Made by a program: the position numbers and the translations under genes
Shown: positions 8,487 to 52,626 of the stretch, piece after piece
Position numbering within the stretch: the first letter of the stretch is position 1
How the letters are laid out: each line of letters starts with the position of its first letter
Notes under the pieces: generated by a model
What the model saw: the letters and a program-made list of their open reading frames with translations, nothing else
Databases searched by the model: none
What the model was told of the DNA's origin: nothing
NCBI GenBank assembly: GCA_964016885.1
Contig: OZ024740.1
Coordinates: 357,492,001 to 357,556,000, forward strand
Origin: Eledone cirrhosa
Lineage: Eukaryota
DNA length: 64,000 nt
Direction: 5' to 3'

Positions 8487-8996
8487 TAAGCAATAAAAAT
8501 TACAACTGGTTAAAATGTCTCATTGTATCGCACGGCCAACCCTTTCGTAGTGAACCGAAACTGTAAAACTTCTTTTTAATACGTAGTCGCAGCTATGTGG
8601 TCTTATGCCACCAACGCTCCAAGAGAAAAGTGTGAGTGTCTAATAATCTCATTTTTATGATATCTTGTAAATGGATAGGCTAACGTGTTACATACAGGCA
8701 CACACAAACACACACACACGCATATATATGTATATATATACCACCAATTGAACCGATGCACACACATACACACACGCGCGCGCATATATATATATATATA
8801 AATATATATATATAATATATATATATATATATATATATATATATATATATATATATATATATGTGTGTGTGTGTGTGTGTATGTGTGTGTGTGTGTGTGT
8901 ATGTGTGTGTGTGTATGTGTCGGTTCAATTGGTGGTAACCACAGTTAGTAAGGTACTCAATACATAACAGAGTATAAATGTTTAATATAAAAATGG

Positions 8997-9043
8997 CTTC
9001 TACAGGACTAGAACTGTTTCATTCGAAAGAAATCATCAGGAAA
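8997..9043 (-). ncRNA. Minimal type I hammerhead ribozyme in a foldback element (8930-9090)
   Basis: Minus strand: TTC-CTGATGA-tTTCtttcGAAt-GAAA-CAG ttctagtc CTG-TA-GAA. Same family as 26851-27025. Confidence 0.6.
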
Positions 9044-9479
9044 ACCCTGGTGATTTCCTTCGAATTAAACAGTTCTAGCCCTGTAGAAGCTCTCTCTCTC
9101 TCTCTCTCTATATATATATATATATATATATATATATATATATATATATATATATATATATTAAAATAACAGATTAAAGTTTAAGCAAAGAATCGCTGCT
9201 TTCACCCTTAACGGGATCTTCTGAAACTAAAAATGTCAATCTGTGAACGCAAATATTTCAAAAAACGTTGCAACCGAAGGAAGACAGGAAGACGATACTT
9301 TGGTTCGTGGAAACGTTCCCTTCACAAAACATACAGGTAATATATACTTACCTATACGAATAAGTAATGGTATTAACATAACATATACTTAGCTACCACA
9401 TCAAGACGTAAAATATCCGCGTATAGTTCGTACTATCCGTTAGGGTATAATGTGGGGCTGTAATACAGGAAAGTTTTGT

Positions 9480-10038
9480 GCAATTTATGTTTACAAGCCG
9501 AAATTACCTCAGATTTTTTTGTTTAAGATGTGGTCTTTGGCGTAGAGTATTTCCAGGGCCTCAGCGGCGCAGAGGTCACATGGTCTTTTATTTCCGTTAT
9601 ACGATCTAGCCCAAGCTATGATCTCCCAGTGTAACTTATATTGGGTGTGGTTGTCTTTTAGACTCCACATATAAGCTGAAAGTGACGTCATATTCCTTCT
9701 TAAAGGGTTAAAAAAGAATAGGTATGCATCTAAAGACGCTGCTTGAATCTATTGGCGGTTAACCCTATATAGGCCCTACGGGACGTGGGTGTTTCAACCT
9801 TACATTTGTAGACAATGTTACTAGAGAGGCATTTCCCGGATAGGGGGCAGTCAACCTGATTCCTACAATTACAGTTAGTACTAGCTACAGGGTTGTACGT
9901 GTTCCTACGGCTAGGTATTTTAACTAAATTTGAAGCTGTGATGTTATGTGCAAGGTTTGGAGTCGTAGAGTAAGAAATTTTAATGGTATTTCTATTAAAA
10001 ATTTTACTATATTTATGTGGTGGGGGGAAATGCTTCAT
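9480..10038 (-). pseudogene. Nematis-like PLE 3' fragment (linker + GIY-YIG)
   Basis: KHFPPPHKYSKIFNRNTIKISYS..CNCRNQVDCPLSGKCL..IVYKCKV..AYIGLT..TSLSAYMWSLKD..CDLCAAE. The 5' end abuts a SINE. A degenerate hammerhead lies near 9190-9225. Confidence 0.85.
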
Positions 10039-10039
10039 A

Positions 10040-10227
10040 ATTGTTTCTATTTTAGGCACAAGGCCAGCAATTATCCAGTACATTACTGGTACTTTATTTT
10101 ATCGACCCCGTAAGGATGAAAGGCAAAGTTAACCTCGGCAGGATTTGAACTCAGATCGTAAAGGGACGTAACTATTCTGGAAAGCATGGCGTCCGACCCT
10201 CTACCGATACTGCCAATTCACCGCCCT
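10040..10227 (-). mobile_element. tRNA-derived SINE (family A)
   Basis: Minus strand: A-box-like TGGCAGTATCGG, B-box GAGTTCAAATCC, family core and tail ...AGAAACAATTAT. Confidence 0.85.
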
Positions 10228-10291
10228 AATAAGGGAGAGAAAGATTTTAGCTAATATATATATATATATATATATATATATATATATATAT

Positions 10292-10722
10292 AATTAAGTT
10301 AAAGTGTACATCTACATATGTATACGGAAGTATTAGTATGCATATAAATACACACATGTATACATATGTACATGTACTGAGTTTTTCACTAGACACTTTA
10401 CAGTGAGTGTCAGCTAGTCTGTATGTAACCACACAGACGGACCGGGTTTTAGAGTCATAAGAGTTTTCAAGGAAACACATTTCCTCTATTCTCCAGAGGG
10501 CCAGACAGGCTGGCCCTCTGGAGAATAGAGGAAATGTGTTTCCTTGAAAACTCTTATGACTCTAAAACCCGGTCCGTCTGTGTGGTTACATACAGACTAG
10601 CTGACACTCACTGTAAAGTGTCTAGTGAAAAACTCAGTACATGTACATATGTATACATGTGTGTATTTATATGCATACTAATACTTCCGTATACATATGT
10701 AGATGTACACTTTAACTTAATT
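10292..10722. repeat. Long palindrome (213-bp arms, 5-nt loop)
   Basis: Arms 10292-10504 and 10510-10722. The ORF track shows the identical peptide on both strands. Confidence 0.95.
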
Positions 10723-49272: not shown

Positions 49273-49493
49273 TTTATATATATATATATATATATATATA
49301 TATACATATATATAAATATAAATATATATATATATAGGTATATATATATATACATATACATTGGTATATATATATACATATACATATATATATAGGTATA
49401 TATATATATACATATACACACACACATATATATATATATATATATATATATATATATATATATATATATATATATATATATATATATATATAT

Positions 49494-50499
49494 ATATGAA
49501 TAAAGTTAGTCTTTCATCAGTGATCTTCCAACCATCATTGGTATTTCATCGCTTTAAAGACCATATACCTCCGGTTGGTGCGAGCAACGGCTAAAAAAGT
49601 CGTTGGGACACGTAAATAATGGGGACACGAGTGTAAACAAACAAAAATGGTGAAGCAACGAAAAGTGAGGAAGAAGGAGTCAAGTCCCAAATTTCTATGA
49701 ATTTTAAATTCGGTGAAATCGTGAACGGGAGAGAATAAAGACCATCAAACCTGGTTGGAATGTGAGCAAGGAAGGAATTCCGTACAGGTCTAACGGGAGG
49801 AAGAAGGGATCTAGTCTGTGATTTCGGTGAACGTAAGTTCTGTGAAAGCGTAGACGAGAGAGAGAAAAAAAGCGACCTGCCAGACCAAGGGTACGAAAGA
49901 AAAGAATTACGCACAGGTCAAACGGGAAGAAGGAGAAGGAGGAGAGGTAGTAACAGAGAATGAGTGAGTGAAGGGTGAGGAATGGCTAACAGAGAGAGTG
50001 ACTGCTAGAGAGGGTAAAGATACAGAGAAAGAGGAAGCAGTAAGAACGAAATAGACGTGTAACAACGGGTAAAAAAAGTCGTTGGGACACGTAAATAAAG
50101 GGGACACGAGTGTAAACAAACAAAAATGGTGAAGCAACGAAAAGATTTCACAGAACTTACGTTCACCGAAATCACAGACTAGATCCCTTCTTCCTCCCGT
50201 TAGACCTGTACGGAATTCCTTCCTTGCTCACATTCCAACCAGGTTTGATGGCCTTTATTCTCTCTCGTTCACGATTTCTCCGAATTTAAATTCATAGAAA
50301 TTTGGGACTTGACTCCTTCTTCCTCACTTTTCGTTGCTTCACCATTTTTGTTTGTTTGCACTCGTGTCCCCTTTATTTATGTGTCCCAACGACTTTTTTT
50401 AGCCGTTGCTCGCACCAACCGGAGGTATATGGTCTTTAAAGCGATGAAATACCAATGATGGTTGGAAGATCACTGATGAAGGACTAACTTTATTCATAT
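49494..50499. repeat. Foldback (354-bp arms) with an internal direct repeat
   Basis: Arms 49494-49847 and 50146-50499; direct repeat 49592-49664 and 50070-50144; degenerate hammerhead with core CCAATGA. Confidence 0.9.
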
Positions 50500-50589
50500 G
50501 TAACCCATTAGCAAACCCGCAGCACGTTTATTCTTATATATATATATATATATATATATATATATATATATATATATATATAAAGGTAA

Positions 50590-51195
50590 ATCCTACAGAC
50601 CATCCCTCTACCACGAATTACACACACACACACACACACACACACACACACACACACACACACACACACACACACACTTGTCTTAATAGGCATTTGAACT
50701 GTCAACAGGCTGCGGTTCGCACACACATCCCTGCTAACCATTATCACAACAACGAACCTCTTTACTACTACTACACACACACATATTTGTTTTGAAAGAC
50801 TTATTTTTCAGTGACTTCTCAATCAGCCAACACAAACCTACATTTGGCGCAAAATCAATTTTTAACATTCACATGACCTCTACCGACCAATCAAAATTGT
50901 TTTGACCACAAGAATTTTTGCAACACGAATTGGCGCAAAACTTATTTTAATACCGCTGGAGCCACTTTTTTAACATAAAAACAGGTAGAATGTCCAAAAC
51001 TAATCAGATTAGAGCAAACATCACGGACGCTCTATCTCAAAATTATTTTTGAAAAGCATTAGAAATGCGCAACCGGTAAAACTTAAAACGAAAACTGAAT
51101 ACTAACCAATACTATTACTAATTCTCTCTTATTCCTAATTAAACTATTTTTCACTGTGAACAATTTGTCAGCATTTTCTTTTCCGTTTACCAATA
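50590..51195 (+). mobile_element. Solo 3'/pseudo-LTR copy of the Neptune element
   Basis: Colinear with 24850-25458. Confidence 0.9.
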
Positions 51196-51370
51196 TATAT
51201 ATATATATATATATATATATATATATATATATATATATATATATATATATATAGGTATATATATATATATACATATACACACATATATATATATATATAT
51301 GTATATATATATATATATGTATATATATATATATACTTATACATATATATATATGTATATATATATATAT

Positions 51371-52382
51371 TTCATCATCTACATTAATGACATTACTGAC
51401 ATCATCAAGCACAGTAACATCAGAATCTTCGCAGATGATTCCAAGCTCCAAAGGGTCATCAATGAGGTGGGTGACCGGACTTGCCTTCAGTCAGACCTAC
51501 TGGCTGTTCTCCAATGGGCAGAAATAAATAATATGCTGTTGAATGAGGATAAATTTGAATTAAGCCACTTTGGAAAAAAGGATGCCCTGAAACTACCTTA
51601 CTCTCTTCCTTCCGGTGAAACTCTAGTGGCATCCAATAACATCAGAGACCTGGGAGTAATTGTGGACAACAACATAAGCTGGGCCACTCATATAAACAGC
51701 AAAGTTGATATAGCCCGCAGAATGTGTTCCTGGATTCTCAGAACTTTCCAATCGAGAGATATCCACACTGTTATCCTTCTCTTCTCCACTTTTGCCCGAC
51801 CCCACCTTGAATACTATTGTCCACTGTGGTCACCCCACACGAAACAGAGTATCATGAAAGTTGAAGCACCCCAAAGGTCAATTACCAAAAAGATAGATGG
51901 CATGACAGGCCTTGACTATTGGGGTCGATTAGAAAAGCTCAAACTTTATTCTCTCCAACGTCGCTGTGAGCGCTACATTATCTGTATGATGTGGAAAATA
52001 TTCCATCAGCTTTGCCCAAATGATGTTGGCATCACCTTTAGTGTACACCCAAGGCTTGGGCCCCCTGATATCCGCCCACAACAAAAATCTCACTCGCATC
52101 ACGTAACCACAATACGGCACAATTATTTCACCTCAATTGGCCCTGCACTCTTTAACATTACACCAAAACACATCAAAGCAGAGACAGACCCCATCAAGTT
52201 CAAGAAGTCTTTGAATAAATTCCTTCAAGAAACCCCGGATATGCCTCCGTAAACAATAACTCTCTGCTCGAGTGGGCCATGGTGCCCAAACACTGATCTG
52301 TAAGACTTCACCAGGTGGTGCTATTAAGTTAGACATGGCCTGGGCCATTACTGGCCGAAACCTATCAAAGTTATCAAAGTTA
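51371..52382 (+). mobile_element. CR1-group LINE, 5'-truncated RT
   Basis: [41 protein letters not shown] open to 52252; tail repeat TATCAAAGT. Confidence 0.9.
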
Positions 52383-52478
52383 TATATATATATATATATA
52401 TAATTGGTGTTGGATGCTTAAAGCGTCTGTTTGCGGTAGGCCGTTTGAGCACTCGATGCTCTCATAGAGCAGAGTATG

Positions 52479-52626
52479 ATATCACAGAAAAAAAGAGAAT
52501 CATTGTTGCGACGAATGGAATTTATTGGACATAATACAATCGTTTCTCTGGCGCCAGAGAAACGATTGTAATATGTCCAATAAATTCCATTCGTCGCAGC
52601 TCTGATTCTTTTTTTTCCTGTGATAT
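52479..52626. repeat. Palindrome centred on GGCGCC
   Basis: Arms of about 73 bp; contains the hammerhead half-site GAAACGATTGTA. Confidence 0.9.

Follow-up and report, generated by a model that had tools for sequence, protein, structure and literature searches.

Foldbacks and Penelope-like elements in the window

The DNA considered here is a 64,000-nt stretch of Eledone cirrhosa (assembly GCA_964016885.1, contig OZ024740.1, positions 357,492,001 to 357,556,000 of the forward strand), referred to as the window. It is AT-rich, its tandem-repeat list runs to 75 rows, and it carries a population of short palindromic insertions (foldbacks) together with longer Penelope-like elements (PLEs). An initial annotation had described 11 foldbacks abutting microsatellites, many of them with hammerhead ribozymes, and had read them either as extremely 5'-truncated PLE insertions or as self-propagating retrozyme-like elements. 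All 11 were recovered at the places given and are named E1 to E11 in positional order; the list was incomplete, as more foldbacks lie at 45900-46085 and 47286-48923. The elements concerned are the following.

8922-9089, minus strand: E1, foldback 8997-9089 plus tail; hammerhead 8997-9043, bulged stem-loop 8953-8973; family and axis in common with E7.
9162-10050, minus strand: Hydra-type 5'-truncated copy that has neither inverted arm nor tail; at 9223 a hammerhead with one mismatch; ends in (TA)n.
10292-10794, plus strand: E2, foldback 10292-10722 with a perfect 213-bp stem, 5-nt loop and tail of about 72 nt; no hammerhead, no stem-loop.
16498-16650, plus strand: E3, zero-loop foldback 16498-16591 plus tail; no intact hammerhead, no stem-loop.
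19655-20003, plus strand: E4, old decayed foldback 19655-19930 with 78% arm identity; tail with the 3' half of the stem-loop only (by eye).
20206-25494, plus strand: PLE-A, Neptune-like, with CxxC linker, reverse transcriptase (RT) and GIY-YIG; inverted arm 20206-20664 and a tail of about 41 nt; neither hammerhead nor stem-loop found.
25695-25903, minus strand: E5, foldback 25751-25903, one arm of which has a 56-nt indel, plus tail; neither hammerhead nor stem-loop.
26583-26832, plus strand: E6, zero-loop foldback 26583-26766; hammerhead 26697-26732, confined to the main arm; stem-loop 26772-26793; axis on a family-borne 8-nt palindrome.
26851-27045, plus strand: E7, foldback 26851-26978 with its axis at the 5' border of hammerhead 26914-26960; stem-loop 26984-27004; family with tandem 78-nt hammerhead units.
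30143-30597, minus strand: E8, foldback 30229-30597 with an 11-nt loop; hammerheads 30271-30336 (minus) and 30490-30555 (plus), stem-loop 30201-30222.
30644-31041, plus strand: E9, foldback 30644-30950 with a 14-nt loop; hammerheads 30851-30919 (plus) and 30677-30743 (minus), stem-loop 30962-30988.
31428-35929, minus strand: PLE-B, broken Hydra-clade element; inverted arm 35592-35929, hammerhead 31576-31630, stem-loop 1 at 31478-31519, stem-loop 2 from 35551, 97-nt tail.
45774-46085, minus strand: twelfth foldback, folded at an internal (AT)n run; its tail, on one side only, is about 126 nt long and starts with half of the stem-loop.
47206-48980, plus strand: T47, an intermediate missed by the initial annotation; arms of about 690 bp around a Hydra-type endonuclease C-terminus, 13-bp duplication at the junction.
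49498-50534, plus strand: E10, foldback 49498-50495 with 350-bp arms, a 298-nt loop holding an extra inverted piece and a 39-nt tail; no hammerhead, no stem-loop.
52404-52622, minus strand: E11, zero-loop foldback 52483-52622 with an axis that can be read as stem II of a hammerhead, of which the 3' half is retained; stem-loop 52449-52475.

The microsatellite-masked window yielded 13 self-centred inverted matches of at least 60 nt, versus none in each of 10 shuffles, and nine of the 11 foldbacks are among them, the exceptions being E5 and E10. Loops measure 0-14 nt in all foldbacks save these same two, and five axes have no loop at all. Arm lengths range from 45 to 350 nt, whereby the whole insert is a hairpin. 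The arms are non-identical in every foldback, diverging by 9-35% in some and by a single substitution in E2, E3 and E7. Contact with microsatellites was confirmed throughout: the tail-less end touches (TA)4 or longer in nine foldbacks and another microsatellite in E1 and E5 ((CT)n and (AAT)n, with TA 19 nt further on), against a background of 1.5% of unmasked window positions lying within 3 nt of such a tract. Of 11 tail-less ends examined, three of them by eye, 10 have 1-7 letters in common with the TA target. The one-sided extension, claimed for most of the foldbacks, is present in all of them at about 39-91 nt, and they are indeed mostly unrelated, the sole aligning pair being E1 and E7 (84% over 168 nt).

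Endonuclease-bearing PLEs have been described, in the available text of the sources, to insert as inverted truncated copies with one-sided tails and a bias towards (TA)n (Craig et al. 2021, PMC8557442; Arkhipova et al. 2013, PMC3846280). Each of the 11 foldbacks likewise consists of an inverted 5'-truncated copy head to head with a direct copy, has its tail at one end only and sits in a microsatellite or AT-rich target. The same head-to-head arms and one-sided tail are found in PLE-A and PLE-B, as had been noted in likening the hairpins to the two full elements without their open reading frame (ORF). Each of the two begins with an inverted arm on the 5' side and has a tail in which the start of the unit recurs, with very unequal arms and junction overlaps of 7 nt (PLE-A) and 3 nt (PLE-B). 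The RT and GIY-YIG of PLE-A are recognized by Pfam, and its CX2-5CxxC finger before GIY-YIG and its DKG motif place it, by motifs only, with Neptune. PLE-B shows, also by motifs, the RWK, DKT, CxCX5C linker, CxxC, CxH and C-terminal endonuclease of the Hydra clade as defined in section 11 of PMC8557442, and the named relatives of its RT come from Argonauta and Octopus at 44-51% identity, which points to a probable octopod host. Searching with tblastn brought out three shorter Hydra-type endonuclease remnants; inverted arms are present in one of them, T47, and absent from the other two, 9515-10050 and 15899-16168. The window contains full elements, copies reduced to the endonuclease with or without an inverted arm, solo 3' ends and hairpins, and the hairpins are the short end of this PLE truncation series.

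Several further PLE fragments were observed. A second copy of the PLE-A 3' end, 85-87% identical and without inverted arm or tail, lies at 50583-51192, and endonuclease remnants on the plus strand at 6243-6524 and 15899-16168 are, one of them, nearer to PLE-A and, the other, of Hydra type. Solo PLE-like 3' ends between microsatellites occur at 10840-10990 (minus), 25541-25692 (plus) and 46380-46560 (minus), with, in turn, an intact minimal hammerhead (10930-10965), a decayed hammerhead followed by a short stem-loop about 40 nt on, and a one-letter core variant. Two 98% copies at 20082-20189 and 26113-26430 belong to a family that ends in a hammerhead-like fold with one core change and then passes directly into (TA)n.

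The window contains 10 intact type I hammerhead motifs, compared with a mean of 0.09 and a maximum of 1 in 100 shuffles. The statement that many foldbacks carry hammerheads stands for E1, E6, E7, E8 and E9, each with an intact one, and fails for the other six; E8 and E9 are the only ones with a hammerhead in both arms. E11 retains the 3' half, E4 has at best a decayed hammerhead (by eye), and none was found in E2, E3, E5 or E10 by the type I motif scan. An Rfam scan of the window gave no match to a hammerhead model at E values up to 5; its 146 matches are nearly all microsatellites or palindromes hitting miRNA models. Terminal-repeat hammerheads combined with (TA)n insertion, as expected of the Hydra clade, are found in E1, E6, E7, E8, E9 and, with the 3' half, E11. 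Two ideas were discarded: the axis does not fall at the ribozyme cut site, as axes lie 5' of the core or in stem II, and the feature in the E11 tail once taken for a decayed hammerhead is the bulged stem-loop.

According to folding predictions, stem I has a probability of 0.000 in all five whole hammerhead-bearing foldbacks, in none of which the ribozyme is foldable within the transcript, and the active fold lies 13-99 kcal/mol above the ground state, versus 1.3-11 for the ribozyme alone. The hammerhead is, as modelled, buried in the foldback. Given that the complement of the ribozyme comes ahead of it in either direction of transcription, the hammerhead is likely a passenger, predicted to be buried in any read-through transcript. 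Paired opposite-strand hammerheads 100-700 bp apart have been interpreted, in the available text of Cervera and de la Pena (2014, PMC4209133), as truncated PLEs; the type I core and palindromic helix III of those hammerheads are the same here, whereas here they are located inside near-perfect foldbacks that would bury them.

A bulged stem-loop at the start of the tails

Six of the 11 tails (E1, E6, E7, E8, E9, E11) start with the pattern RCUC...GAGYRC, which is found in 0-2% of trials with each shuffled tail. The pattern by itself shows only mild enrichment when the window is scanned in full (15 occurrences against a shuffle mean of 7.8 and a maximum of 15), so it is the position that carries the signal. 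For comparison, 77 Hydra-type loci on metagenome contigs (numbered with L below) were taken from the best 80 of 361 loci confirmed among 602 candidates. Within 52 of these 77 loci there are 63 hammerhead matches, and setting aside 10 with less than 90 nt downstream left 53. A stem-loop follows 36-61 nt past the cut site in 41 of the 53, versus a shuffle mean of 0.42; of the remaining 12, eight reach (TA)n first and four have neither. The corresponding distance is 42-61 nt in E6, E8, E9, E11 and PLE-B. The published Hydra-2_Amil consensus contains the stem-loop as well, in the doubled form described below.

In 28 non-redundant copies the structure comprises a 4-bp stem, a 2-nt bulge on the 3' side and an inner stem. 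With the 2-nt bulge as register, the inner positions pair in 27, 24 and 18 of the 28 copies, versus 13.5, 9.1 and 7.9 after permutation, and other registers are far weaker. At the first inner pair, 14 copies have U-A and 13 have C-G, a switch that needs five changes on the RT tree. An alignment fitted to the model, which by its nature leans to its own structure, reaches 99.2% paired cells and 38 two-sided changes, more than any of the slid controls. The copies in the window keep the bulge register, with seven of eight pairing at the first inner position; their outer pair is A-U in seven of eight and G-C in the 28 metagenome copies.

The stem-loop is, moreover, doubled: 19 of the 28 are followed by a second copy after 55-83 nt, and in 18 of those 19 an ATG stands 13-40 nt beyond this second copy. 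Both copies are related to the ends of elements. Removing 12 microsatellite self-matches of L076 and three short TA runs inside intact parents reduced 25 TA junctions to 10, eight of which lie 7-13 nt before a stem-loop (L010, L022, L042, L044, L050, L075, L076 and L054, the last with a variant motif recognized by eye). Copies bearing an ORF end at the first site (L010, L076) or at the second (L075, which is thereby tailed). L046, read by eye, has an inverted arm that stops 10 nt short of the second copy; its main copy begins at the hammerhead's 5' edge, as is the case for E1 and E7. Within the window, the TA flank starts 6, 6, 7, 12, 7 and 6 nt before the stem-loop in E6, E7, E8, E9, E11 and PLE-B; the tail of PLE-B stops 7 nt short of that element's second stem-loop.

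The doubled stem-loop is thus a well-supported conserved structure, predicted to mark the starts of reverse transcription. It is on this structure, as defined here, and not on protein, that the likely assignment of E1, E6, E7, E8, E9 and E11 to the Hydra clade is based; E2, E3, E4, E5 and E10 lack the combination of hammerhead and tail stem-loop, E4 having half a stem-loop. No description of a doubled stem-loop was found in the literature searched, in which few subscription journals are covered, nor in the available text and supplement of the Hydra paper (PMC8557442). Two other observations concern the metagenome loci. Stem III of many of their hammerheads (L018, L021, L024, L031, L034 and others) reads ACUC-N-GAGU, the same letters as the outer stem of the tail stem-loop in the window, and L023 (1-5083) and L035 (1-4943) contain whole-unit head-to-tail duplicates of more than 99% identity, resulting from tandem insertion or an assembly effect.

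Origin of the hairpins

Four runs (X1, which may come from the source sample, X4 from another sample, X5 from another organism, and X21) were mapped to the E6-E7 stretch at 85% likeness; the joints and loose ends cited are the best supported among those listed, beyond which there are a further 49 joints and 616 loose ends. As no mapped record in the four runs covers the whole stretch, read support applies at the level of the family. Both families are very abundant: they are matched by 13119 X1 contigs and by 18426 of the 12.5 million X21 reads. For E6, 2245 reads run upstream of the axis with one sequence (agreement 0.95), which recurs in organism B and makes the axis an 8-nt palindrome already borne by the family; 1118 X21 reads stop at the tail-less end, 26767, and then enter (TA)n. 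For E7, records crossing the axis are present in all four runs, at about 1.5-4% of family depth (17.7 thousand against 1.22 million for the arm in X1, 197 against 4666 in X4, 17 against 407 in X5 and 84 against 3375 in X21, these being depths and not copy numbers). The loop letters vary at this axis, 1080 reads leave the reference there, and among the joints listed other axes occur at stem II and within the tail; the E7 axis is for these reasons preferred and recurrent, not fixed. Contigs of the E7 family turn back on themselves at two places, the loop of stem II (joints 26896 to 26932-26934) and a mini-hairpin of 3 bp that precedes the core (two letters skipped at 26912). In the E1/E7 family a head-to-tail joint from 26981 to 26914, with about 10 letters between, is supported by 82 reads from 16 starts in X21 and by X1 contigs, and implies hammerhead units of 78 nt; upstream of the hammerhead, read agreement in this family is 0.41-0.62, compared with 0.95 in E6.

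A pile of X21 read ends at 26723 and 14-nt loose ends at 26659 were considered as ribozyme cuts and rejected because they fall on short sites typical of restriction enzymes, presumably those of reduced-representation libraries (the enzyme identity is our assumption). The same 4-letter site on the E7 axis likely depletes crossing reads in X21.

Taken together, the hairpins are probably dead 5'-truncated Penelope-like insertions, at least six of them likely of the Hydra clade, in which inverted and direct copies of the 3' end stand head to head in (TA)n and would result from two starts set by the stem-loops. The truncated-PLE option of the initial annotation is hence favoured by the architecture, the intermediates with endonuclease remnants, the shared Hydra stem-loop and the families that extend past the axis. 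As to mechanism, the RT-endonuclease would bind the two stem-loops and cut both strands of a (TA)n site, and one cDNA would be primed just 5' of each stem-loop, aided by the few matching TA letters. The cDNA from the second site would carry the tail and that from the first site would not. Both would stall early, often at the hammerhead helices, and their ends would anneal at a short palindrome or inverted repeat; joining by short complementarity is suggested by the 7-nt and 3-nt junction overlaps of PLE-A and PLE-B. Two stem-loops setting two reverse-transcription starts would explain the one-sided tail of PLEs. We more tentatively propose that the twin bulged stem-loops of Hydra PLEs (4-bp stem, 2-nt bulge, covarying inner stem) seat two RT-endonuclease subunits and fix the starts 6-13 nt upstream, that their spacing determines the tail, and that an E1/E7 element with tandem hammerheads parasitises the same signal.

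Several results speak against this reading. The near-equal arms of nine foldbacks suit snap-back as well as two cDNAs. No hairpin matches the DNA of PLE-A, PLE-B or T47 beyond chance-level stretches of 17-29 nt, and no parent ORF was found, from which it follows that the parents are not within the window. Neither hammerhead nor stem-loop is present in E2, E3, E5 and E10, and the stretch of the T47 tail that was tested has no stem-loop. The cut site lies 27 nt from the stem-loop in E1 and E7, under the range of Hydra-type loci, and two of the 10 junctions are inside ORFs with no stem-loop near. The PLE-B stem-loop 1 exceeds the 28-nt loop limit of the motif search. A covariance model, built from 11 metagenome copies of equal length because free alignment of the 28 left the 5' strand unaligned, performed weakly on the window: E7, E1, E8 and E9 take ranks 2-5 of 16 (E values 0.25-1.8), E11 ranks 12, and E6 and the PLE-B tail are missed. 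Finally, G-U and A-C pairs are near equal in number (4 and 3), so folding as RNA rather than as cDNA is not indicated.

Among the alternatives, a possible if doubtful one is self-priming, in which a single cDNA derived from the same parents folds back on a short template hairpin and copies itself. Snap-back gives the same product wherever the template has a short hairpin, and the short loops, the fold-back points of E7-family contigs at the stem II loop and mini-hairpin, and the E11 axis all suit it; self-priming has also been proposed from palindromes at inverted junctions in the available text of PMC3846280. It cannot, however, yield PLE-A, PLE-B and T47, whose arm lengths differ greatly, and the five loop-less axes and the 8-nt palindrome of the E6 family are better suited to end-to-end annealing, while an inverted arm that bears the tail, as in L046, needs an independent start. 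The initial annotation's other option, self-propagating ribozyme elements that copy themselves as hairpins around a fixed axis, is very unlikely. E1 and E7 do share an axis that is crossed in all four runs, but the variable loop letters, the other axes and the reads that continue past the axis in both families have largely refuted this model for E6 and E7, and the ribozyme is predicted to be buried where it is intact and is not intact in six of the 11. A weaker retrozyme-like form is conceivable for the E1/E7 family, as a short non-autonomous element made of tandem 78-nt hammerhead units and a Hydra tail, moved in trans by the Hydra RT in the manner of a retrozyme-like short interspersed element (SINE), a suggestion that we regard as rather unlikely. 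The head-to-tail joint, the great abundance and low upstream agreement of the family and its preferred axis at the 5' border of the hammerhead argue for it, and tandem retrozymes have been linked to PLE terminal repeats in the available part of a recent report (10.64898/2026.07.22.740005). Against this, a doubled hammerhead in an ordinary PLE terminal repeat gives the same joint, and units of 78 nt are far below the 220-350 nt of retrozyme monomers given in the consulted portion of PMC7229834.

That E2, E3, E5 and E10 are non-PLE foldbacks, or DNA elements resembling miniature inverted-repeat transposable elements (MITEs) that use TA sites, is improbable. None of the four has a hammerhead, a stem-loop or a match to a PLE. 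On the other hand, the hallmark of PLEs is a one-sided tail that separates hairpin and microsatellite, PLE-A is likewise without both motifs, and the 39-nt tail of E10 fits the 30-40 bp given in the available text of PMC8557442. A sequencing or assembly artefact is barely credible as the source of the palindromes: the single-substitution arms of E2, E3 and E7 and the lack of a record across the E6-E7 stretch would be compatible with it, whereas all arms differ, some of them widely, the tail-less ends fall on a biologically defined site, and axis-crossing records come from another sample (X4) and another organism (X5).

Returning to truncated PLE insertions, the hairpins agree with published insertion units (PMC8557442, PMC3846280, as far as their available text goes) in head-to-head arms, one-sided tail, microsatellite target and junction palindromes, and differ from those of PMC8557442 in arms cut to 45-350 nt and in tails of 66-97 nt in the stem-loop class, against 30-40 nt as published there. 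From the Hydra clade as described in the same text, which includes Hydra-1_Obim of Octopus bimaculoides, PLE-B has the motifs, hammerhead and TA insertion, and the six hairpin tails share the stem-loop of PLE-B. The Poseidon PLE of Anolis (PAc) has been studied in vitro (Frangieh et al. 2024, PMC11167929, available text): its protein, predicted to be a dimer, cleaves both strands and extends them, the tail is delimited by two internal starts, RNA 3' of the start is needed and the hammerhead is dispensable. The PAc start is located within the ORF, in an AC-rich stem-loop, and shows no homology with the DNA that is cut, whereas the Hydra-type ends described here lie 6-13 nt before either of the twin stem-loops in the 5' UTR and mostly have 1-7 TA letters in common with the target. 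Non-LTR (long terminal repeat) retrozymes, to judge from the available text on them (PMC7229834; Li et al. 2026, 10.64898/2026.07.22.740005), have in common with these elements the type I hammerhead, the absence of an ORF, the link to PLE terminal repeats and, for the E1/E7 family, tandem units; unlike such retrozymes, the elements in the window are inverted, consist of a single unit and bear a PLE tail. At least two consecutive head-to-tail units with a complete hammerhead, the mark of a retrozyme, are found at none of the 11 loci, the joint being in other copies of the E1/E7 family.

The hairpin population is therefore a known kind of PLE debris, ordinary in itself, and the doubled stem-loop is the new part and the one that matters. 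The inversion and the one-sided tail of PLE insertions are a long-standing puzzle, and in the PAc system, in the available account of it, two starts were located but no sequence rule emerged that could be transferred. With a short RNA element that is doubled, covaries and predicts both 3' ends, a direct mutational test becomes feasible in the existing assay format. The stem-loop also offers a way to place anonymous short foldbacks, easily taken for MITEs or assembly errors, in the Hydra clade.

Further features of the window

A scan for host genes covered 98 open frames, three of which have Pfam matches, and established no gene context. The matches are:

426-872, minus strand: DUF7041 (Pfam).
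18506-19454, minus strand: hAT dimerisation remnant (Pfam).
62064-62360, plus strand: C2H2 finger (Pfam, below cut-off).

Long open frames without Pfam matches at 37619-38641 (minus), 39736-40970 (minus) and 51143-52252 (plus) give the impression of transposon or non-LTR remnants. A repeat of about 190 bp is present in many copies and both orientations (10033-10227, 42629-42819, 43414-43631, 44930-45117, 46194-46380, 56110-56295 and others) and explains the inverted matches at 41.7-46.4 kb; it resembles octopus SINEs. In addition, a 390-bp direct repeat of 98% identity occupies 3941-4330 and 5637-6025, and a 71-bp tandem array with an inverted partner extends over 41276-42324.

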